Part shown: in pieces, positions 17,900 to 30,470 of the stretch | How positions within the stretch are numbered: the stretch's first letter is position 1 | Layout: every line of letters begins with the position of its first letter | DNA from: a virus | Taxonomy: Duplodnaviria > Heunggongvirae > Uroviricota > Caudoviricetes | DNA length: 35,247 nt | Strand: one strand, 5' to 3' | IMG/VR virus record: IMGVR_UViG_2703719355_000021 | Made by a program: the position numbers and the translations under genes | Notes under the pieces: model-generated | The model's input: the letters and a program-made list of their open reading frames with translations, nothing else | Databases searched by the model: none | What the model was told of the DNA's origin: nothing

Positions 17900-18700
17900 T
17901 TAACCGCGCTTCGCCTTCTGCGTCGCGGTGGTTTTTCGTGTTGCAGGCTTCCGCGTTGTCTTTTTACTTTTGCTGCTTTCGTCCTGCGCCTGCGGTGTGC
18001 TGGCATCTTCTGGTGCGGCTGCGGAATCGGCTTTTTTCAGGGCGCGGGAAAGGGTTGCAATCTCGCGTTTCACACCTGCGTTCGGGTTCAGGTGCATCGC
18101 TTCGCGCAGCAGCTTCAGTGATGAGGCCATGCTGTCCGCATCGGTCAGGCCACGGCGGGCAAAGGCGCACGCTTTGCATAATTTGGCGCGCACTTCGTCC
18201 GGCATGTCCTGGTCGGTGACAATCTCCCGGAGGGTGTCCAGTGGTTCGATAAAGGTGGACAAATCCGCGTCGGCATCCGTCCCGGCCTGCGTCAGTACCG
18301 GATTACAGATTTCTTCGGTCAGTACCGTGGCAGCAGTACGTCCAAAGTTATCCGGCATGATGAGGTTGTGACGGACCACATATGCACCAATACGCAGCGC
18401 CAGCGGAAGATCGCCGCAGTCAATCGCCCACACCATCAGCGTGGCAATCACTTCATCCTGCTGCCCGCCGTCAGCCTCCAGCGTTCCTTCAATCCAGCCG
18501 GAAAAGTCCGGCAACAACTCTTTTTTGATGGCGGCTTTGGCGCTTCTGGCCTGTACGCCCTTAAGCCGGGCCTGTGCCAGACGCAGACGATACAGCACCT
18601 CTTCATGCGCGGTACGCGCGGCGTGATCCACGCCTTCATTCGCCCGGCCTGCGCGCTGCGCCATCACGTTCTGCCAGTGTTGCTGTGCAGGAGTAATCAT
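17900..18700 (-). CDS. M: terminase endonuclease (small) subunit gpM
   Basis: 266 aa; DMPDEVRAKL motif shared with P2 gpM; basic Lys/Arg-rich C-terminal tail. Confidence 0.88.
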   Translation of the reverse strand: MITPAQQHWQNVMAQRAGRANEGVDHAARTAHEEVLYRLRLAQARLKGVQARSAKAAIKKELLPDFSGWIEGTLEADGGQQDEVIATLMVWAIDCGDLPLALRIGAYVVRHNLIMPDNFGRTAATVLTEEICNPVLTQAGTDADADLSTFIEPLDTLREIVTDQDMPDEVRAKLCKACAFARRGLTDADSMASSLKLLREAMHLNPNAGVKREIATLSRALKKADSAAAPEDASTPQAQDESSKSKKTTRKPATRKTTATQKAKRG

Positions 18701-19821: not shown

Positions 19822-20658
19822 TCAGAAGTCAGCCAGCTGGTCGGAGGCTGCGCCCGTTGCGGTGAAGCGGTTCTGCGGATCGCCGTCCTGCGTGCGCAGT
19901 TTTTCCTTCAGTGCTGTCAGCTCTGTGGTCAGTGACGTGATTTTCTGGCGGTCCTGCTGATGGCGGGTTTCCAGCACATTAAAACGGTCGATAATGTCGG
20001 CCTGTGACGTTGCGACGCCTTCCACCGCTTCCTGAATACGGGAGAAACTGGCGTCATCCGCTTTGCGGCCACGACCAATAATCCCCATTACGCGGTTAAA
20101 CCACTGGGTGCCTTCTTCCTGGCGTTGTTCTGCCATTTCGATGATTTCAGACTCGATGGCTTCGGAGATAAGCGGTGCTTCACCCTGGACACTGTTGAAC
20201 GTCATCACCGCCTGACGTTGCTGTGCCGTGAATTTCAGGCGCTCAGTGCCCAGGCTTGCCGGGGTGTCGGTCATCGCCAGCCCGACCAGATAGGCGCGCC
20301 CGTTAACGGAGAACTGCGGGTGCAGTTCGATACTGGAATAGATTTTCTTGCCGTCAGCGACAAGCTGCTTCATGCGCTCGGTCGGTTCGATTTCTGCATA
20401 CAGCGCAGTACGTCCGGCCAGCGGGCCTTCCGTAATATCTTCCGTACTCAGCGCGGTGACATCGCCCATTGCGGAAAATTCGCTTGACGGGCATGGCGAG
20501 AGATAGTGCTCAACGTTCACGCGGGCAGCGTAAACATCCGGGTTGAAGTTCTCGGCGGCTTCACGCAGATGTACCGGGCTGATTTCGCGGCCATCAACAG
20601 TTGATCCGGAGACAGCCACGCGAAACTTTTTGCGGGATGTCTTTTTTTCATTAGCCAT
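19822..20658 (-). CDS. O: capsid scaffolding protein gpO
   Basis: Internal start MANEKKTSRKKFRVAVSGSTVDGREIS matches the P2 gpO N-terminus; GAGGGG ribosome-binding site. The track ORF starts 11 codons earlier without one. Confidence 0.9.
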   Translation of the reverse strand: MANEKKTSRKKFRVAVSGSTVDGREISPVHLREAAENFNPDVYAARVNVEHYLSPCPSSEFSAMGDVTALSTEDITEGPLAGRTALYAEIEPTERMKQLVADGKKIYSSIELHPQFSVNGRAYLVGLAMTDTPASLGTERLKFTAQQRQAVMTFNSVQGEAPLISEAIESEIIEMAEQRQEEGTQWFNRVMGIIGRGRKADDASFSRIQEAVEGVATSQADIIDRFNVLETRHQQDRQKITSLTTELTALKEKLRTQDGDPQNRFTATGAASDQLADF

Positions 20659-20812
20659 AGTTTTTGCCCCTCTGACTGGTTCTTCAGTCATGATGGCAAA
20701 GCGTAACAGGCTGATACAAAGGGCTTTTGTTGTAAGAAAACGGCCAGAACAGGGGGTTAAGGAGAACGGTTTCGCGCGCGGGTAATCTTCCTGTAATTAC
20801 TCAGGGGGAGCA

Positions 20813-22564
20813 ATGATTCAGGACGCTTTTGTGCGCCAGCGTGCGCGGCAACTTTACTGGCAGGGTTATCCGCCCGCAGAAATATCACGTCTGATGGGAA
20901 TAAACCCGAACACGATTTATGCGTGGAAAAAACGTGACCAGTGGGATGAAACGCCACCCGTGCAGCGTGTCACGCAGTCCATCGATGCGCGCCTCATCCA
21001 GCTTACTGAAAAACAGAACAAAACAGGCGGTGACTTTAAGGAAATAGACCTGCTGACCCGGCAGCTTAAAAAACTGCATGATGGCCAGCCGGATGCGACG
21101 GCCACAGGAAAGAAAGGCCGGGCGAAAAAACTCAAAAATCATTTCACGCCGGAACAGATTGCCGCACTGCGGGAAAAAATCATCAGCAGGCTGGAGTGGC
21201 ATCAGCGGGGCTGGTTTGACTCCCTGACCCTTTGCAGGGAAGCCGGGATACGTAACAGGATGATCCTGAAATCCCGACAGATTGGGGCGACCTGGTATTT
21301 TGCACAGGAAGCACTGCTGATGGCGCTGCGTGACGATGTGGCGCAACCTTACCAGCGTAACCAGATTTTTTTGTCTGCGTCGCGTCGTCAGGCGTTCCAG
21401 TTTAAAAGCATTATTCAGAAGGCCGCGGCTGAAGTTGATGTGGAGCTGAAAGGGGGCGATAAAATCATCCTCTCCAACGGCGCAGAGCTGCATTTTCTCG
21501 GCACTTCTGCTGCGTCGGCACAGTCCTATACGGGCAATTTTTATTTTGATGAATTTTTCTGGGTCAGTCGCTTTGCTGAACTGCGCAAGGTGGCTGGCGC
21601 TATGGCAACCCTCAGCGGACTGCGGCGCACCTACTTCTCCACGCCATCCACCGAAACGCACGAGGCATACGCCTACTGGAACGGCGACCGCTGGAACGAG
21701 AAAAAGGCCTCGCATAAACGCCAGCGTTTTTCTGTGGGCTGGGAAACGCTGCATAACGGGCTTATCTGCCCTGACCGGACGTGGCGGCAAATTGTCACGC
21801 TGGAAGATGTGGTTAATCACGGCTGGAAACACACCGATATTGATGAAATTCGTGATGAAAACACCGAAGACGAGTTCCGCAATCTCTATATGTGTGAGTT
21901 TGTCCGCGAAGGGGAATCGGCATTTAACCTGAATATCCTGATTGGCTGCGGTGTTGACGGATACGACGACTGGAAAGACTGGAAACCTTTTGCTCCCCGC
22001 CCGATGGGGAATCGTCCGGTATGGATTGGGTATGACGCAAACGGCAGCAGTGGCAACGGCGACAGCGGCGCTGTGTCCGTGGTGGTTCCTCCGGCTGTTC
22101 CTGGTGGCCGTTTTCGAACGGTGGAGACGCGACGCGTTCAGGGGCTGGAGTTTGAAGAACAGGCCAGAGTCATTGAAGAGTTCACGTATCGCTACAACGT
22201 GGAACACATCGGCATTGATGTGACGGGTGGGAACGGGGAGGCTGTTTATCAGATAGTGAAACGGTTTTTCCCTGCTGCTATTCCGTACACCTTCACGCTG
22301 TCATCAAAACGGTCGCTGGTACTGAAAATGCTGCAAATAATGCGTGCCGGGCGGTGGGAATACGATCGCGCCGAACGCGAGCTGGTCGCGGCCTTTAACG
22401 CCGTGCGTAAGGTGAAAACACCGGGCGGCTTTATCACTTACGAAACGGACCGCGCGAGGGGGATCAGCCACGGCGACCTTGCGTGGGCAACCATGCTTGC
22501 TGTCATTAACGAACCGATTGGCGGCGAAGGAGAAAACGAGCGTTTCACGGTTATGGAGTTCTGA
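20813..22564 (+). CDS. P: terminase ATPase (large) subunit gpP
   Basis: 583 aa; divergent from O as in P2; Walker-type region (ILKSRQIGATWYF); GGGGGAG ribosome-binding site. Confidence 0.95.
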   Translation: MIQDAFVRQRARQLYWQGYPPAEISRLMGINPNTIYAWKKRDQWDETPPVQRVTQSIDARLIQLTEKQNKTGGDFKEIDLLTRQLKKLHDGQPDATATGKKGRAKKLKNHFTPEQIAALREKIISRLEWHQRGWFDSLTLCREAGIRNRMILKSRQIGATWYFAQEALLMALRDDVAQPYQRNQIFLSASRRQAFQFKSIIQKAAAEVDVELKGGDKIILSNGAELHFLGTSAASAQSYTGNFYFDEFFWVSRFAELRKVAGAMATLSGLRRTYFSTPSTETHEAYAYWNGDRWNEKKASHKRQRFSVGWETLHNGLICPDRTWRQIVTLEDVVNHGWKHTDIDEIRDENTEDEFRNLYMCEFVREGESAFNLNILIGCGVDGYDDWKDWKPFAPRPMGNRPVWIGYDANGSSGNGDSGAVSVVVPPAVPGGRFRTVETRRVQGLEFEEQARVIEEFTYRYNVEHIGIDVTGGNGEAVYQIVKRFFPAAIPYTFTLSSKRSLVLKMLQIMRAGRWEYDRAERELVAAFNAVRKVKTPGGFITYETDRARGISHGDLAWATMLAVINEPIGGEGENERFTVMEF

Positions 22565-23610
22565 TGAGCAGAAAAAATAAAAAAGTGCGCATGAGTTCAC
22601 GCATTGATCTCGCTGATGCGCTCAGGAAAGAATCATCGCTCAGTGCATTCACATTTGATGGTCCTTATCGCCTGACCGGGCATGACCTGCTGGACAATAT
22701 GTACTGTGCTGATAACGGGCGGTGGTATGAAACCCCGGTGGACTGGTACGGTCTGGCAAGAGCCGCCCGGCAAACGTCCTGGCATCAGTCTGCGCTTTAC
22801 TTTAAGCGCAATGTATTGCTCGGTTGCTACATCCCGCACCCGCTGCTTTCCCGGCAGGATTTCTCGGCGCTGGCGCTGGACTGGTTTGTGTTCGGTAACG
22901 CATTCCTTGAGCTTCGAAGCAATATGCTCGGCGAACCGCTAAAATTACGGCACGCCCTGGCGAAATACATGCGACGCGGAAGCGATCTTGAATCATGGTG
23001 GTATGTGCAGGATGGCAAGGATGCGTTTCAGTTTCGCCCAGGCAAAGTGTGCCACCTGATGAATCCTGACATTAACCAGGAAATCTACGGCATGCCGGAA
23101 TATCTCGGCGCATTACTCTCGGCCAGCCTGTCTCATTCGGCGGACATGTTCAGAAAACTGTATTACGACAACGGATCCCACGCCGGGTGCATCATCTACA
23201 TCGGTGCAGCGCAGGTAAACCGCGAAAGCATGGACTCCCTGAAAGAAACGCTACAGGGTGCGCGTGGTGGTGGTGCGTTTAAAAACGTGCTCATTCATGC
23301 GCCCAACGGGGGCAAAGAGGGGGTGCAAATTTTGCCGTTCCAGCAGATCACCGCAAAGGATGAGTTCATGAATGTTAAGGCGGCATCCCGTGATGATGTG
23401 CTGGCTGCGCACCGCGTTCCGCCGCAACTGATGGGGGCGATGCCGGGTGAAAAAAGTGCGTTTGGTGATGTGGAGAAGGCCGCGCGGGTTTACGCAATTA
23501 ACGAGCTGATGCCCGTCATGGAGGCCATGAAGCACATCAATGACTGGCTTGGCGAAGAGGTGATCCGCTTTAACCCTTACGCACTGTTAGACATCCAGCC
23601 CACATCCTGA
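22564..23610 (+). CDS. Q: portal protein gpQ
   Basis: 348 aa immediately after P with an ATGA-type overlap; P2 gpQ-like. Confidence 0.95.
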   Translation: MSRKNKKVRMSSRIDLADALRKESSLSAFTFDGPYRLTGHDLLDNMYCADNGRWYETPVDWYGLARAARQTSWHQSALYFKRNVLLGCYIPHPLLSRQDFSALALDWFVFGNAFLELRSNMLGEPLKLRHALAKYMRRGSDLESWWYVQDGKDAFQFRPGKVCHLMNPDINQEIYGMPEYLGALLSASLSHSADMFRKLYYDNGSHAGCIIYIGAAQVNRESMDSLKETLQGARGGGAFKNVLIHAPNGGKEGVQILPFQQITAKDEFMNVKAASRDDVLAAHRVPPQLMGAMPGEKSAFGDVEKAARVYAINELMPVMEAMKHINDWLGEEVIRFNPYALLDIQPTS

Positions 23611-23636
23611 CGCGCTTCGCTTGTCTGCTGCTTCGC

Positions 23637-23661
23637 CGGGGCATAAAAAATTTATGCCCCG
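23637..23661. terminator. perfect 11 bp palindromic hairpin downstream of portal gene Q
   Basis: cggggcataaa-aaa-tttatgccccg about 27 bp after the Q stop; no clear T-run, so it may be a terminator or a protein-binding site. Confidence 0.45.
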
Positions 23662-24034
23662 ACTCTCCAGCTCCTGTATCAATCAGATAATTTCACGACG
23701 CTTTTCTGCTTATTGCCATCATCGGCGGTCAGACTCTTACGCAATCCCACCGCATTGACTGCATGTTCTCGCCGCCTCAGTGCGATTTTGACGGCCTTAC
23801 CTTTCACCCCATCAAATCAGAATCCCTCACGTATTCTTCACGCTCAGCGTGAGAAATACAGCCATTCTGTTGTGTCGCTGCGACATCGTTCAGGGGATGC
23901 TATTTACCCCCTGAAACGCGGGCTGTTCCCCCGTCACCTGCGCGCAGAAAAAGCGCGTTTTTTTGTGCACGCACGGATCCTTGACGGATCCAGCCGCCAC
24001 GCGGGCCGGAAGGGCAAAAAGTCGTTCAAAAAAA

Positions 24035-24061
24035 TTGTGCAAATTTGTGCACTATTGTGCA
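24035..24061. repeat. three TTGTGCA direct repeats at exact 10 bp phasing
   Basis: attgtgcaa / atttgtgcac / tattgtgcag; a fourth copy about 70 bp upstream (about 23963); lies in the Q-to-accessory gap where cos is expected. Confidence 0.5.
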
Positions 24062-24101
24062 GCAGGGCGATGCGCGATTATCGCCCTGGTTTGAGAGGAA
24101 A

Positions 24102-24641
24102 TCAGGTGTTCTTTTTACCTTCTGTCAGTGGGCATAACCATCCACTATTTACATCACTTAGCTGATGCGTTCTTTCCTCGTGCTTCTCCTGCCACAATGC
24201 TTTTCCGCCAGCCTTTATGATGGCTCTTTCAACATCCCGCTCGTATCGCAAGGGCTGAAATACGTCATTAATGAAATATTCGCTTATGTCCGGAAGCGAT
24301 ACTGCAAAATTATTTGTTTGTTGCGCCGTCCTGCTATGCAGCAAAGCGGCATACTTTAATGCGTCCTGTGCTTTCTGGAATTTAAGTGCATAGTCAGTGG
24401 CGATTTTTTCCAGTTCAGCGATGCGTTTTTTTGCTGTTTCCAGTTCATCCAGCAGTGCCAGCATGTCTTCCGGTCCAGCCAGAATTCTGAAGGTGTTGAT
24501 CGCGTCAATATCCACACCGTAATCTTTAAGTTCCTGTTCGCTTAACAAATCATCATCAACTGGCAATATTAACAGGCGTTCCATTGCCGGAATTGCACGT
24601 TCTGCTGCCATTTGTAGTGCCTGATAGTCAATTTTGCTCAC
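24102..24641 (-). CDS. Ead/Ea22-like family protein (paralogue 2)
   Basis: MSKIDYQALQMAAERA... N-terminus and ALLDELETAKKRIAELE coiled-coil motif typical of Ea22-like proteins; start overlaps the stop of the upstream paralogue (ATGA). Confidence 0.8.
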   Translation of the reverse strand: MSKIDYQALQMAAERAIPAMERLLILPVDDDLLSEQELKDYGVDIDAINTFRILAGPEDMLALLDELETAKKRIAELEKIATDYALKFQKAQDALKYAALLHSRTAQQTNNFAVSLPDISEYFINDVFQPLRYERDVERAIIKAGGKALWQEKHEERTHQLSDVNSGWLCPLTEGKKNT

Positions 24642-25237
24642 TGGCTGCCTCCTTTGCGAAGCTCTGCGGCGAAATATACAGCTGCGGAAACAATAGCTGC
24701 ATGTCGGTATTCATCATCAGAAAATAAAGAATCTCCCTTAAGTGCATTGACGATACTCTGATGATTTTTTGCCAGCATCTCCACGCCCTGCGCCCGTACT
24801 TCAGCCAGAAAAGCGTCGGTGGCTGGGGTTTGTGGCATTCCTCCGTCTGTTGCGCAGATATACGCGTCAGATATTTCATCCTGCTCTCCATCAAATACAT
24901 AGCAACTGCCCCTGATAAACAGCTTCATTGCGGCATTCTCCGCTGCCAGCTCCGTGAAATTAGCCTCCAGCTCTGCAATGCGTTTGCTTTGGGCTTCTCG
25001 TTCATCCAACAGAGCCTGCACTACTTCAGGGTTGAAAGCTGCGATATAACGAGCGTTGTTCTCTGCGTTTTTCTGTTCGTCGAATCCAGGCCAGTCGACA
25101 ATATCTCCGTGATGATTATCTCCTGGTGTGTGCACGGCGTACGTGCCGTATTTGCCCGGCGAAATAAATGCGACCCATTCGCCCTGTGTTGCCTGTTTTG
25201 CTAACTCACGCAGTGCCTGATAGTTGATTTCGCTCAT
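24638..25237 (-). CDS. Ead/Ea22-like family protein (paralogue 1)
   Basis: MSEINYQALRELAKQATQGEW... and ALLDEREAQSKRIAELE; AAGGAG ribosome-binding site. Confidence 0.8.
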   Translation of the reverse strand: MSEINYQALRELAKQATQGEWVAFISPGKYGTYAVHTPGDNHHGDIVDWPGFDEQKNAENNARYIAAFNPEVVQALLDEREAQSKRIAELEANFTELAAENAAMKLFIRGSCYVFDGEQDEISDAYICATDGGMPQTPATDAFLAEVRAQGVEMLAKNHQSIVNALKGDSLFSDDEYRHAAIVSAAVYFAAELRKGGSQ

Positions 25238-25300: not shown

Positions 25301-25612
25301 TTATTCGGGAAATAACGCCCGGATATTTCCGGCCATCTGACTGGTTATCTGTGCGGTTGGTGCTGGCTGTGGCACGGGGCGTTCTGTCCTGGTTTGTGTC
25401 ACTGATAACGCCTCGCCATCAGCCCATGCAGCCAGTCGGTAAGCCTCTGCCGGATTCATTTTCAGAAGTGCCAGCCCGGCCAGAAAAGCCACGCGTTGGC
25501 TGCTTTTGCGGGCTTCTGGTGTAAGGCTGTCCAGCCAGGCGCATGCTTCGCTTTCGTTCTTGACGGCGGCGGGCTTCAGATAGAAACTTATCCGTCTGGT
25601 TGGTGTCGTCAT
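25301..25612 (-). CDS. parR: ParR-like centromere-binding partition adaptor
   Basis: Internal start MTTPTRRISFYLKPAAV...LDSLTPEARKSSQRVAFLAGLALL...IRALFPE matches recalled plasmid R1 ParR (RRTIAFKLNPDV...LDSIPQGERSRLNRAALTAGLALY...LRSLFPK); AAGGAG ribosome-binding site embedded in the parM 3' end. Confidence 0.75.
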   Translation of the reverse strand: MTTPTRRISFYLKPAAVKNESEACAWLDSLTPEARKSSQRVAFLAGLALLKMNPAEAYRLAAWADGEALSVTQTRTERPVPQPAPTAQITSQMAGNIRALFPE

Positions 25613-25616
25613 TGGT

Positions 25617-26576
25617 TTACTCCTTGTCCATTGCGTACAGCCCATTAACCAGAGCAAACTGTGGCACCCCGTCCGCGATGAAAGTCGCATTAACTCCGCA
25701 GGCTTCGCGGATAGCGGGTGCCACAATCTCCGCCCCGCCACCGACAACCATCACCCGCCCGTAACCCGAAAAACCCGCCAGTGCGCGGATTACGCGTTGT
25801 TTCAGTGTTTCTTCCTTTTCACGAATAACCGCCATCAGGCTGGCGTAATGCGCGTCATTGTGGATGTGCTGGCGCAGCCAGGCTTCATCATGGCGATGTT
25901 CGATAATGGTATTGGCGATGTGGTGACTGGTACGCATACCGTTAGTGGCCATCACCGACAGTACGGCATCGGCCATCAGGGAAACGCCTACGTGTGGATC
26001 GCAAAACACCTGGCTGATACCTGCCAGTTGTCCCTGAACCTTTGCCACATCCAGCGTGGTTCCGCCTAAATCCACAATCAGCAGGGATTCAAACGGACTC
26101 ATGTCAGCCAGTGCTTTAAAACCAGCCGGTATGGATTCAGGCATAACCCGTACGTTACGGATAGTGAATGCTTTTCCGTTCTGGTACGCCACCGGGCGCA
26201 TGACGTTTGCTTTTTTGCGGTTGATGTTGGCCATGTCCGGCTGTGCGTTTGTGTCGAAATACTCGCTCAGTGGCAGGGTGACAACCACATCCACCTCCTG
26301 TGGCGTGATGCCTGATTTGACCAGCGCGTGATGAATGGCAATGACATTCACATCGCTGTACTGGTATTGCGTGTCGGTCGTCTGGACAAAGCGATCGCTG
26401 ACCGGATCAAAACCATAGCGCACGCCATCAAGCATGTAGTTCGCGGGCTGCGTGCCACCGAACGGCGCAGACCATTCCGACTTGAAGCTGTTCGGGCTGA
26501 TGGCGTTGCGGCGTTCGCCGTTCTCAGTCCATGCCAGCTTGATGTTGGTGGAGCCGTCGTCGATACAAATTCTCAT
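25617..26576 (-). CDS. parM: ParM/StbA-family actin-like segregation ATPase
   Basis: MRICIDDGSTNIKLAW...ISPNSFKSEW...YQYSDVNVIAIHHAL...VDVVVTLPL closely parallels R1 ParM (MLVFIDDGSTNIKLQW...ISPNSFKREW...WQYSDVNVVAVHHAL...); AAGGAAAA ribosome-binding site. Confidence 0.9.
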   Translation of the reverse strand: MRICIDDGSTNIKLAWTENGERRNAISPNSFKSEWSAPFGGTQPANYMLDGVRYGFDPVSDRFVQTTDTQYQYSDVNVIAIHHALVKSGITPQEVDVVVTLPLSEYFDTNAQPDMANINRKKANVMRPVAYQNGKAFTIRNVRVMPESIPAGFKALADMSPFESLLIVDLGGTTLDVAKVQGQLAGISQVFCDPHVGVSLMADAVLSVMATNGMRTSHHIANTIIEHRHDEAWLRQHIHNDAHYASLMAVIREKEETLKQRVIRALAGFSGYGRVMVVGGGAEIVAPAIREACGVNATFIADGVPQFALVNGLYAMDKE

Positions 26577-26605
26577 CTCGATTTTCCTTATGTTGATTAA
26601 TTAAT

Positions 26606-26720
26606 CGTTTACGGGATTCTGAAATCCCGTTTTTGCCTGTTTTGTGCGCGCTTCACATATCGCTGCGCGTTTTTTGCTCATTTACGGGATTTGTGAATCC
26701 CGTTTCTGTCTGTTTTTTGT
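26606..26720. repeat. two ~40 bp direct repeats, each with a palindrome (acgggatt-N5-aatcccgt), upstream of parM: candidate parC centromere/operator
   Basis: cgtttacgggattctgaaatcccgtttttgcctgtttt (about 26606) and catttacgggatttgtgaatcccgtttctgtctgtttt (about 26679), 73 bp apart; the second lies within the last codons of gene A. Confidence 0.5.
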
Positions 26721-29475
26721 TTCCACTGGTCAGGCCACCCCGCAGCAGGTCTGCTTTGCGGCGGGCGCGTTCAGTGGTTTCACTGATTCTCTGTGCGTGC
26801 TCTGCGTCGCGGATGGCGCGCAGCATGTCAGAAAGCACGGTAACGGGTGTTTTCATGGTGTTCTGGTCCTGCTGAAGTGTGGATGCCAGGCGTGCGGCGG
26901 CTTCAGGGTCTGATGCCCCCAGCTGTGCCAGATAGCTGGCGACCGGGTTATGGCGGATCTCCGTGCTGCTTACGCCATGATTACGGCTCAGGCGCTGCCA
27001 GAGCTGCGTGATTCGGCTGTCCGGGCGGGTATCCGGTTTGCGTACAATTTCAAATCCCTGCGGTGCAATGATGCTGCCGTCAACGTACAGACTGCCGCCC
27101 CGTAACAGGTGCTGCATCTGTTGTTCACCGATATGCAGGCCGAGAGATTCAGCAGACTCTCGCCATTCTTTAGCGAGTAATTCGTGGTTATCAGGCAAAG
27201 GCCGCTGCTGTTTGCGGCTCTGTGTCCAGCTCTGCATTTCATCACTGCTGTTTTTTGCCTGTTTGTCACGAAGCGAACGCATCAGCGCCCGGCGTTCGTG
27301 CCGTTTCAGTGAGCGCATCCATTCGTTCACTTCAACGCCGTCAGGGAGCTGCGGCCACGGTGCTGGCCGTTCTTCCGGCTGTTCTGTCCCGTTGTTGTCC
27401 GTTTCCTGTACACGGGGACAGTTATTGCCACGAGTCCAAGGGGCGGCAGGGCCGCCCTGAAGGTCAAAACCATTTTCGCGGGCGCTGTCTTCCGCTTCCG
27501 GTTTGCGTCTTACCAGCTTCCAGTTATCCGGATGCGTGCACACACGGGAGGATTCCCCGATGAGTGGTGACCAGATCCCGTAAATCTGTACGCTCTGTTC
27601 GCCGTAATCGTTCAGCTCATCGGCGAGGTCGTAGGCGGTGCGAATCAGGTAGTCTTTGCGTGGAACAAGTACGCCGCCCTGTTTCTCTATGTAGGTGGCA
27701 AAACATCCGGCATCAGCGGCGGCAAGAACCGCATCCATTGCGTCATCCTTCAGCCGTTGCGGGCCTTCCGGGTTGCGTGCCATCTGGCTGGCAAGGCGGC
27801 GCAGTTCACGCCATACCTGGCGGGAGGGGATGCCAAAGAACTGGAACTGGCGGACCCGGTGAAGGCGCGCCCAGCCGATGGCGCGTTCCACGCTCTCGGC
27901 CATTGATTTTCCGGTTTCGTGGTCAACGCGTGGCTTGCCCGTTTTCGGGTCGATGCCATCCACGGCGCGGCTGTCCAGGTTTTTCCCGATGTAGGTGGCA
28001 ATGTAGCTGGTTGGCGTGCCTTTTGAGCCGTCTACATACTCCGCCTTAAAGCGCGGAGTTATGTCATCGCCCAGCTCGTGACGATCTTCCTGAATGGCAA
28101 TATCGCGGGTGTGGGACACAATGGTGTCGATTTCTTCCGGATGAGCAAAGACCATCATATGCCAGTGCACGGTGCCGTCATGGTGAGGCTCCACCGTGCG
28201 GATGCCATACCAGCGCAGGCCGTCGCGGTTCAGTTTCTTGCGGACCGCCGCAAAAAACGTGTTAACCAGGTAATCGCTGGAGTCGCGCATGGTGGCCCCG
28301 TTCCATTTGGGGTTCGGATGACCGTTCTCCGTTGTTGCGTGGTATTTTGACGGGCAGGTGACGGTCAGAAACACCGCTCTGTCGCCACGGGCTTCGGCCA
28401 GAAGTTCCAGTCCCTTCATGGTGGCCATCATTTCTGCTTTACGGTGAACCGGGTTACTTACTCCCGCGTAATACACCGTCTCGAGATCAATCGTGAACCC
28501 GTCTTCATTTTCCAGCATGAAACTTTTCAGGAAATCGCGTGTTTTCTCGCGCTGTGCGCGAAACTCGCTTAACGCGTCCTGGCTCAGATAGGGTGATGTT
28601 TTTCTGGAAACCAGACAGGCGGCGCGGAGTTGTTCTTCTCTCCACTCGCAACGTAACAGCCACAGTTTGCGTTTCCACCATTCCGCACAGGTCAGGCGAA
28701 GGATTGCGCCCGGCAGCAGCTCCGTGTCCGGTTCGTTCCTCCGGTCTTTATCTGTTGTCAGTGCGTCATAATGTGGAGGCATGATGTGCAGGTGTAACGC
28801 CATGCGGGCCAGCATCTGATACGCCTTCAGCGTTACATCCATGGTCAGTTCGCCATCGGTCGCGCCAAAGCCATCGCAGAGTTTTTCGAAGGTGCTGCTG
28901 AACATCGCCGCCGTCATGGTGGCCAGCGTCTGTATCTGGTGTTTGTTGAGCTGCGGCAGGTAAAGCAAATCGTCCAGGCGTTCGCGTCCGGCAAGGGAGC
29001 GATAACCCGGTGTCAGCCAGTGTCCGTCAGTGCGATCCAGACGTTCGAATATTTTGCGCAGGGTTCCGCGTGCATAGCGTTCCGCCTGCCAGCTCTTTTT
29101 GCCTTTCCGGCGATCGGCTTCCTGTTTTTTGCGCAGGAAGGAGAGGTGGCGAATAAGCGGATCGCGCAGATAGGACGGCAGCAGGCGCAGCGAGGCCATG
29201 GCTTCATCCACCGCGCCGCGTGCCTGTTTTCTGGCGTCTCCTGCCAGTGTGATGGTTTTGTCCTGTTTTTCCTGTGCGTCCAGGCTTTTATTAATCAGGT
29301 TGCCCAGCGGCGTGGCGGAGAACGCCGCATCAGCCATTTCCTTGCGGCGCTCGTTCTCTGCCCGGTAGGCATCCAGCCAGGAGGAAAGCGCGGATTCAGG
29401 AGCGGGGATCCCCGTTCCTTCACGCCCCACTGCGTGGCGCGGTTGTTGCCAGTCCCTGATGTACTCTGCCGTCAT
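26653..29475 (-). CDS. A: replication initiation protein gpA (rolling-circle endonuclease family) with extended C-terminal region
   Basis: 940 aa; HHDGTVHWHMMVF-type HUH-like motif and P2/186 A-like central region; last gene of the early operon; about 180 aa longer than P2 A. Confidence 0.88.
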   Translation of the reverse strand: MTAEYIRDWQQPRHAVGREGTGIPAPESALSSWLDAYRAENERRKEMADAAFSATPLGNLINKSLDAQEKQDKTITLAGDARKQARGAVDEAMASLRLLPSYLRDPLIRHLSFLRKKQEADRRKGKKSWQAERYARGTLRKIFERLDRTDGHWLTPGYRSLAGRERLDDLLYLPQLNKHQIQTLATMTAAMFSSTFEKLCDGFGATDGELTMDVTLKAYQMLARMALHLHIMPPHYDALTTDKDRRNEPDTELLPGAILRLTCAEWWKRKLWLLRCEWREEQLRAACLVSRKTSPYLSQDALSEFRAQREKTRDFLKSFMLENEDGFTIDLETVYYAGVSNPVHRKAEMMATMKGLELLAEARGDRAVFLTVTCPSKYHATTENGHPNPKWNGATMRDSSDYLVNTFFAAVRKKLNRDGLRWYGIRTVEPHHDGTVHWHMMVFAHPEEIDTIVSHTRDIAIQEDRHELGDDITPRFKAEYVDGSKGTPTSYIATYIGKNLDSRAVDGIDPKTGKPRVDHETGKSMAESVERAIGWARLHRVRQFQFFGIPSRQVWRELRRLASQMARNPEGPQRLKDDAMDAVLAAADAGCFATYIEKQGGVLVPRKDYLIRTAYDLADELNDYGEQSVQIYGIWSPLIGESSRVCTHPDNWKLVRRKPEAEDSARENGFDLQGGPAAPWTRGNNCPRVQETDNNGTEQPEERPAPWPQLPDGVEVNEWMRSLKRHERRALMRSLRDKQAKNSSDEMQSWTQSRKQQRPLPDNHELLAKEWRESAESLGLHIGEQQMQHLLRGGSLYVDGSIIAPQGFEIVRKPDTRPDSRITQLWQRLSRNHGVSSTEIRHNPVASYLAQLGASDPEAAARLASTLQQDQNTMKTPVTVLSDMLRAIRDAEHAQRISETTERARRKADLLRGGLTSGNKKQTETGFTNPVNEQKTRSDM

Positions 29476-30150: not shown

Positions 30151-30329
30151 GGTGTGGCCCCTTGTGTAGTAAGTTGTGAAAACTCACCATCCAGAGCTGC
30201 GAAACTGTGGGTGGCGAGACGTACGAGGTTCGCAGTACCGGCTACACAAGAACCCGGCCCGACCGAAGTCGGCCCCGTACGCCCCGCCATAATTCTGACG
30301 CGAAAAAAACGTGGCAATACAGTACGCAC

Positions 30330-30350
30330 AAAAAAACCGCTGGCGCGGTT
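30330..30350 (-). terminator. intrinsic terminator inside the early operon (minus-strand sense)
   Basis: Minus-sense aACCGCgccaGCGGT followed by seven T; flanked by complementary cgcaca / tgtgcg. Confidence 0.55.
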
Positions 30351-30470
30351 GTGCGCTTGTGTAGTCAGCAGGCTGCGAAACCCGGCACCCGTTTTGTGAG
30401 GTGCAGCGGAAATGTAACCTGACTGATTGCGGCATGGCAAGCGGTTTTTTTGTGTGTGCATTATGATCAC

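Follow-up and report, generated by a model that had tools for sequence, protein, structure and literature searches.

Where does the packaging enzyme of a P88-like prophage cut its DNA, and what marks the place? The question is raised by a gap in IMG/VR record IMGVR_UViG_2703719355_000021, a stretch of 35,247 nucleotides (hereafter the window) that is a P88-like prophage (Xuanwuvirus, Peduoviridae) of the P2 family, lying in the reverse of the standard P2 map. The gap, positions 23611-24101, begins after the stop codon of the portal gene Q (22564-23610, plus strand), and an earlier note on this DNA had pointed to three phased TTGTGCA repeats near its far end. Here, we argue that 23901-24062 is probably the complete cos packaging signal of this P2-family prophage, and that the heptamers within it are the predicted recognition sites of terminase, the packaging enzyme. 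The elements of the signal are, from left to right:

23901-23919, plus strand: left flank of cosN, ATTTACCCCCTGAAACGCG, the leftmost stretch common to a satellite that lacks terminase
23920-23940, strand not applicable: predicted cut site cosN; judged by sequence 23920-23938, GGGCTGTTCCCCCGTCACC, matching the P2 cohesive end at 13 of 19 positions
23939-23962, plus strand: right flank of cosN, a kept TGCGCGC, a variable stretch, then a T-run at 23958-23964
23963-23969, plus strand: proximal heptamer TTGTGCA, starting at +25 from the cut boundary, more strongly conserved than any other element here
23970-24034, plus strand: spacer of 65 bp, with GATC at 23976 and 23987, a GC-rich imperfect dyad, and an A7 tract at 24028-24034
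24035-24061, plus strand: three distal heptamers TTGTGCA, starting at 24035, 24045 and 24055 (+97, +107 and +117)

The predicted cut site

A staggered cut that leaves 19-nt 5' cohesive ends is predicted at about 23920-23940, and cosN is placed there because the region is colinear, via intermediate prophages, with the annotated cohesive ends of P2 and 186. A multiple alignment without internal gaps extends from the left flank across cosN as far as the third distal heptamer, and takes in the window, both classes of cosN described below, SEN5, Wphi, 186 and P2. The cohesive ends annotated in the P2 and 186 records fall exactly at the aligned cosN, and the Wphi and SEN5 records, which start at cos, also align there. 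This alignment bears out the earlier suggestion that the gap lies where the P2 family keeps cos; the predicted signal stands between the 3' end of Q and the right-end accessory region (cargo begins at 24062), in a window that encodes the cognate gpP/gpM terminase in cis. As in the rest of the family, the 19-bp end is GC-rich and homologous to GGCGAGGCGGGGAAAGCAC, in the correct orientation and with conserved flanks, and on its left side a C-tract followed by GCG recurs in relatives.

The block also travels apart from its surroundings. In Enterobacter phage phiT5282H the DNA that follows the portal gene is unrelated, yet it contains the identical 19-mer, with the T-run and all four heptamers behind it, and the 19-mer of the window occurs in more than 120 IMG/VR contigs. 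One locus (L129) diverges a single base past the 19-mer into GGTAATGACTCCAACTTATTGATAGTG and ends after 49 nt; this sequence resembles what we take to be the terminal repeat of IS1, so that an insertion sequence would presumably have landed inside cos.

When 52 loci with relatives of the portal gene were taken, one genome per species, the cos core was found in 40. Two classes of cosN occur in these 40 loci between the same flanks, the window type and a P2-like type, GCTTGCTCCCCCGCCTCGCC (P2 itself, in the same orientation, reads GTGCTTTCCCCGCCTCGCC). Compared with the P2 type, the window class has 2 nt fewer within cosN and 2 nt more before the proximal heptamer.

Could the cut lie instead in another GC-rich part of the gap? 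The earlier note, finding no convincing match to the P2 cohesive end, had offered a look-alike near 23768-23786 as the nearest candidate, and if cos were there (23763-23786) the conserved block to its right would be only accessory. The stretch does match P2 cos at 12 of 19 positions (23763-23781), in the right orientation and 152 nt after Q, where P2 has 167 nt. However, by our estimate chance alone would give about 0.5 matches of this quality in 490 bp read on two strands, and P2 aligns with the flanks of 23920-23940 but not with those of this stretch. The match is moreover confined to the P88 lineage, being absent from phiT5282H and every non-P88 relative, in which the DNA between Q and cos is unrelated, and from the terminase-less satellite. 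We regard a cut in this stretch as very improbable; its resemblance to P2 is at the level of chance, and the true homologue of the P2 end lies about 155 bp away, at 23920-23940.

One proximal and three distal heptamers

The three TTGTGCA copies in 24035-24061 are indeed exactly 10 bp apart, and begin 72, 82 and 92 bp past the start of the proximal copy. The earlier note had also seen this fourth copy near 23963; it is present, though not as a stray but as the proximal member of a conserved 1+3 layout. Over the whole window TTGTGCA shows no enrichment (11 observed versus 8.7 expected), and the four copies within 99 bp form a local cluster for which our Poisson estimate, for the window, is about 1e-5. 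All four have one orientation and, by simple arithmetic on the 72, 82 and 92 bp distances with 10.5 bp per turn, lie within about 90 degrees of one helical face. The offsets of the heptamers compare as follows:

Window: 25, 97, 107, 117; TTGTGCA
ST131 satellite island: 25, 97, 107, 117; TTGTGCA
P2: 23, 95, 105, 117; (T/C/G)AATGCA-type
P4: 23, 95, 105, 118; ATGCA core
186: 23, 95, 105, 118; ATGCA core
SEN5: 23, 95, 105, 115; mixed TGTGCA and ATGCA
Wphi: 23, 94, 104; ATGCA core

The distance from the proximal to the first distal heptamer is thus 72 bp in the window, P2, P4, 186 and SEN5 alike. The window resembles the cos regions of P2, 186, Wphi and P4 in several ways: cos follows Q, the 19-bp cut site is rich in GC and has a run of C at its core, the flanks are of the GCGCGC type, and a T-run leads into a heptamer with a TGCA core that stands 23-25 bp from the cut; the three phased heptamers come exactly 72 bp after it, and accessory genes that vary adjoin them directly. 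It differs from P2 at 6 of the 19 positions of cosN, by the 2-nt shift between cosN and the proximal heptamer, in the heptamer itself (TTGTGCA rather than (T/C)AATGCA), and in the third distal copy, which stands at +10 rather than +12 or +13. The window cos is a P2-family cos site with a diverged cut sequence and a variant heptamer. Ziermann and Calendar reportedly found, in 1990, that about 125 bp are needed for transduction, a length that would reach the distal heptamers. The 1+3 array on the right flank was derived here, as a criterion, from P2, P4 and 186 and is not a feature taken from the literature; none of the accessible sources describes the layout. It may be a trait of an already known element that has received little description, and not the sign of a new kind.

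How widely is the array kept? The 40 cos loci span the Enterobacterales, including Citrobacter, Edwardsiella, Serratia, Kosakonia, Brenneria, Pantoea, Klebsiella, Morganella and Erwinia, with Q identities of 54-99%, and the positions of the array are occupied in every one of them. The proximal heptamer is found at +25 or +23, exactly or with one mismatch, in all 41 sequences scored (the window, 39 genome loci and P2). When the 19-mer was used as a probe of IMG/VR, each of the four positions was occupied in 82-88 of 95 distinct right flanks, with the proximal one at 88. The repeats, which the earlier note had supposed to go with the terminase, are present at fixed offsets in every relative examined. 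An information-content profile over 39 non-redundant sequences gave the following values, in bits per position:

cosN: 1.50
Proximal heptamer: 1.90
Spacer: 0.73
Distal heptamers 1, 2 and 3: 1.74, 1.41 and 1.38
Beyond the third heptamer: 0.19

Because the spacer averages only 0.73 bits and yet the 72-bp spacing is fixed, its length is kept far better than its sequence. Past the third heptamer the IMG/VR flanks pass through many unrelated junctions, and 24061/24062 is where the window ceases to resemble P88-like phages. The signal ends with the third heptamer, and exchangeable cargo begins directly beyond it.

The same distribution bears on a quite different explanation of the repeats, namely that they are the parC centromere of a ParM/ParR module that lies 1.2 kb away. 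Like R1-type parC, the array consists of short direct repeats, phased about one helical turn apart, with parM and parR nearby. The two do not co-occur, however: parMR is present in 2 of the 52 related loci, the two closest relatives, against an array in 40 of 40 cos loci, and the annotated stretches of P2, 186 and P4 that were examined contain no parM or parR. In the window, moreover, the repeats lie downstream of parR and of the operon, beyond two cargo genes. A centromere at the heptamers is scarcely credible, being refuted by this distribution. Two GGGATT-N4-AATCCC palindromes followed by GTAAA, about 75 bp apart at 26605-26700 and straddling the end of gene A and the gap upstream of parM, are plausible as a better parC candidate, or as an operator.

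Phased repeats also occur in Mannheimia phage phiMhaA1-BAA410 (L187), which has three TGCACAC copies, TTGCACACATTTGCACACTTAAACTGCACAC, about 190-225 nt from the right end of its record. These copies, perhaps a remote equivalent of the array, point the other way and differ in their distance.

The strongest argument that the array is part of the packaging signal comes from satellites. P4, for whose packaging the terminase of P2 is used, is reported to have only the cos region in common with P2 (PMC9122126, PMC9594776), and it keeps all four heptamers in a spacer that is otherwise different from that of P2; by our count, 124 bp separate its outermost heptamer from the genome end. A second satellite was found by searching E. 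coli genomes with the 158-bp block. In E. coli ST131 2019_APHA (NZ_CP051609.1), a 12.8-kb island between gcd and hpt (L193, 4595-17099; the block itself is at L191, 4001-4158) encodes two integrases, a toprim primase, an Icd-like protein, an Ogr/Delta-like protein, MazEF and a P2-family major capsid protein of 423 aa, with no terminase, portal or tail genes. Its content is similar to that of P4, except that it encodes its own capsid protein, and its similarity to the window is confined to about 23901-24062, with one mismatch in the 19-mer. Two unrelated satellites that need only the packaging signal of a helper have therefore kept exactly this block, which argues that the array belongs to that signal.

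Candidate readers of the heptamers

How might the heptamers act? In phage lambda, cos consists of cosQ, cosN and cosB, and the sites R3-I1-R2-R1 are bound by gpNu1 and integration host factor (IHF). Our working analogy is that both systems would have a nicking site flanked on one side by short terminase-binding repeats that are split by a bendable spacer. By that analogy terminase would dock sequence-specifically on the heptamers, which would play the role of the R sites of lambda cosB. Bending or wrapping of the fixed 65-bp spacer, in which the A-tract, GATC sites and GC dyad may help, would bring protein on the proximal heptamer close to protein on the distal triplet, and the docked assembly would set the nuclease on cosN at a fixed distance. 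The array could act at initiation, like lambda cosB, or at termination, like cosQ, depending on the polarity of packaging. The two systems also differ: they have no sequence relationship, the cohesive ends are 12 nt in lambda and 19 nt in the P2 family, and the lambda R sites are 16 bp long and not all in one orientation.

The two terminase subunits are encoded at:

17900-18700, minus strand: terminase small subunit gpM (PF05944)
20813-22564, plus strand: terminase large subunit P, gpP (PF03237, PF17289, PF06056)

The putative binder may be gpM, an N-terminal helix-turn-helix (HTH) of gpP, or both. The earlier note had proposed that a multimeric protein such as the small subunit reads the repeats. 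Reading by the packaging enzyme is still the best explanation, but the choice of the small subunit over gpP is not supported, as the model of gpM has no recognisable DNA-binding fold and gpP has an HTH. That model, built from an alignment of 37 sequences, is an all-alpha repeat resembling tetratricopeptide repeats (TPR), and is a confident one, with a predicted local distance difference test score (pLDDT) of 83 and a predicted template-modelling score (pTM) of 0.72, and the tail of the protein (residues 229-265) is disordered, basic, and rich in lysine and arginine. Compared with structures in the PDB, its best matches are weak ones to TPR proteins, with no small terminase (TerS) and no HTH among them; unlike Nu1, the modelled gpM would have no winged helix, the HTH being on gpP. 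A sequence search of the PDB found no solved relative of gpM or gpP. The HTH of gpP occupies residues 6-63 (PF06056/HTH_23), and the 186 record notes an HTH in its homologue too.

The predicted recognition helix of gpP changes along with the heptamer. Among the examined Enterobacterales users of TGTGCA it reads NQNT(I/V)Y(A/S)WKKRD, with the variants SANTLYSWRRRD for Morganella and SINTIYSWRRR for SEN5; P2, 186 and Wphi, which use ATGCA, have KRPTVQSWKQRD. This correspondence is consistent with reading of the heptamers by gpP; within the TGTGCA group, heptamer variants (final A to G) showed no pattern of covariation with the HTH of gpP. A more specific proposal, which we offer tentatively and hold to be somewhat unlikely, is that the array would be read by the candidate HTH of gpP and not by gpM, that gpM would be a TPR-like assembly adaptor with a basic tail, and that the 1+3 array and its 72-bp gap would set the geometry of a multi-subunit gpP over cosN.

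Perhaps the heptamers are bound instead by a host architectural protein such as IHF, Fis or HU, which would only bend the DNA for a terminase bound elsewhere. There is precedent in that lambda cosB requires IHF; a conserved A7 tract precedes the distal triplet and a T-run the proximal copy, and by our reading CATCAAAAAAATTG, found in many relatives, is one base off the IHF consensus. The window, however, lacks the ATC of this IHF-like match, and all the sites switch as a set, from TGTGCA to ATGCA, between phage lineages whose common host is E. coli. Because the motif switches as a set among phages of one host, a phage-encoded reader is favoured, and we consider a host protein at the heptamers unlikely.

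Several points weigh against reading 23901-24062 as a cos signal docked by terminase through the heptamers. The accessible literature contains no paper that maps cos or virion ends for P88-like phages, and a scan for physical ends with the 19-mer found the motif at the locus end in none of the 80 IMG/VR loci listed, most of which look like prophages in isolate genomes. The linear record of P88_4B11 starts and ends inside the spacer (equivalent to about 24016), at neither candidate cut site; its termini look arbitrary. The register of the predicted cut is uncertain by 2 nt, falling at 23920-23938 if judged by sequence or at 23922-23940 if judged by distance from the proximal heptamer. In this last respect, the sole indel between P88_4B11 and the window in the region is a 5-nt deletion at the left edge of the predicted cosN (equivalent to 23917-23921; about 3415-3425 in L004), which favours the register 23922-23940 if that phage is viable. 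Lambda cosB is on the terminase-gene side of the cut, whereas the array of the window is on the far side, at the right end of the genome. The correlation between HTH and heptamer amounts to about one evolutionary switch, in a comparison made for gpP. Those parts of the literature on P2 and P4 that are accessible describe cos only as a '55-bp core' (PMC5694545, PMC3931495). Finally, the old-tin transcripts of P2 start about 28 nt beyond the third heptamer.

This last point would suit a transcriptional role for the array, either as a terminator or insulator that keeps early transcripts off cos or as a promoter or operator that serves the neighbouring cargo. On the minus strand, GTGCACAAATTTGCAC followed by T7 scores as resembling an intrinsic terminator, but its stem is only 5 bp and weak (z = -1.5), and P2, P4 and 186 have no A/T-run there. 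The orientation of the cargo varies among relatives, and in the window it converges on cos; no sigma-70-like promoter was found in 23400-24400. P4 and the ST131 satellite, furthermore, keep the array beside unrelated genes. A role in transcription is accordingly quite unlikely. An activator site of the Ogr/Delta type (TGT-N12-ACA) and a CRP site were also checked by eye on the array, and neither fits.

Surroundings and meaning of the signal

The packaging signal predicted here lies among further palindromes, two of which the earlier note had listed alongside the repeats:

23637-23661, plus strand: palindrome with perfect 11-nt arms and a 3-nt loop, 27 nt past the Q stop (-18 kcal/mol, z = -4.5)
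24063-24088, minus strand: palindrome with arms of 9 nt around an 8-nt loop, lying 14 nt past the stop codon of the minus-strand gene at 24102-24641 (z = -3.3)

The first, whose arms are perfect as described, sits where the P2 record annotates the tQ terminator, and although no U-tract follows it we infer that it is a terminator. The second is real but has no part in cos. It is terminator-like and lies in variable cargo, outside the signal, and is found only in relatives whose junction after the repeats reads gcagggcgatgc. The note had also listed a hairpin with a T-run at about 23940-23968. It can be drawn (23940-23958 plus T7), but it is weak (z = -1.2) and its stem is restricted to the P88 lineage, most relatives keeping the T-run only; as a Rho-independent terminator, 23940-23965 was rejected on these two grounds.

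Other palindromes lie between Q and cos, at 23831-23859 (z = -4.1) and 23889-23915 (z = -3.5); the latter, TTCAGGGG-N11-CCCCTGAA, ends 4 nt before cosN. Palindromes of the G4/C4 kind recur left of cos, at varying positions, in some relatives (L008, L056). About one tenth of relatives (L007, L042 and 11-12 IMG/VR loci) have some 600 extra bp between the portal stop and cos. In the Salmonella locus L007 (4562-5125), a minus-strand open reading frame (ORF) of 187 aa is inserted at the Q stop and replaces the last Q codons; it marks a further, smaller slot for cargo on the side of cos that faces Q.

The gap contains no credible ORF, as had been noted: only mechanical ones of 42-150 aa occur, none with a match in PHROG, and the two tiny 'hypothetical proteins' in the gap of the P88 RefSeq record are probably over-calls. 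A scan of the whole window with Rfam covariance models found nothing in 23611-24101, its sole matches being the two adjoining RNAs listed below. The other neighbouring features are:

19822-20691, minus strand: scaffold gene O
24102-25237, minus strand: two tandem Ead/Ea22-like cargo genes (PF13935), the nearer at 24102-24641
25301-26576, minus strand: parR and parM, a partition module of the R1 type (ParM PF06406/PF21523, ParR PF10784)
26653-29475, minus strand: replication endonuclease A (gpA)
30207-30404, minus strand: C4 antisense RNA (83 bits) and isrK (64 bits), adjoining (Rfam)

The C4/isrK pair is a P1/P7-style immunity RNA inside a P2-like prophage. The nearest phages to the gap are Escherichia phage P88 and its relatives, with 94-96% identity. 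Among 5426 complete E. coli genomes the gap region is present in 1146, about a fifth, and is chromosomal at all places but one; in RefSeq it is unannotated in 7 of the 8 E. coli records among the matches listed.

What does the array mean for these phages? It fixes the predicted cos site for a lineage of prophages that about one in five complete E. coli genomes carry, and provides a compact cos signature for the Peduoviridae and their satellites: cosN, a heptamer at +23 or +25, and three more 72 bp further on. Defence systems are reported to occupy a cos-adjacent hotspot in many P2-like phages (PMC9122126), and the outer edge of the packaging signal is the inner edge of that hotspot. The predicted functional unit starts 19 bp left of the cut and ends with the third distal heptamer, about 160 bp in all, which bears on P2/P4 cosmids and transducing particles, since these depend on the amount of flank that they contain. 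The sequence of the heptamer is predicted to set helper specificity. The array is also a testable handle on DNA recognition by a structurally uncharacterised terminase. If the HTH of gpP does read it, cos recognition in this family would be unlike that of lambda, and would take place on the opposite side of the cut; P4 and the ST131 island, satellites of at least two kinds, would have taken it over whole.

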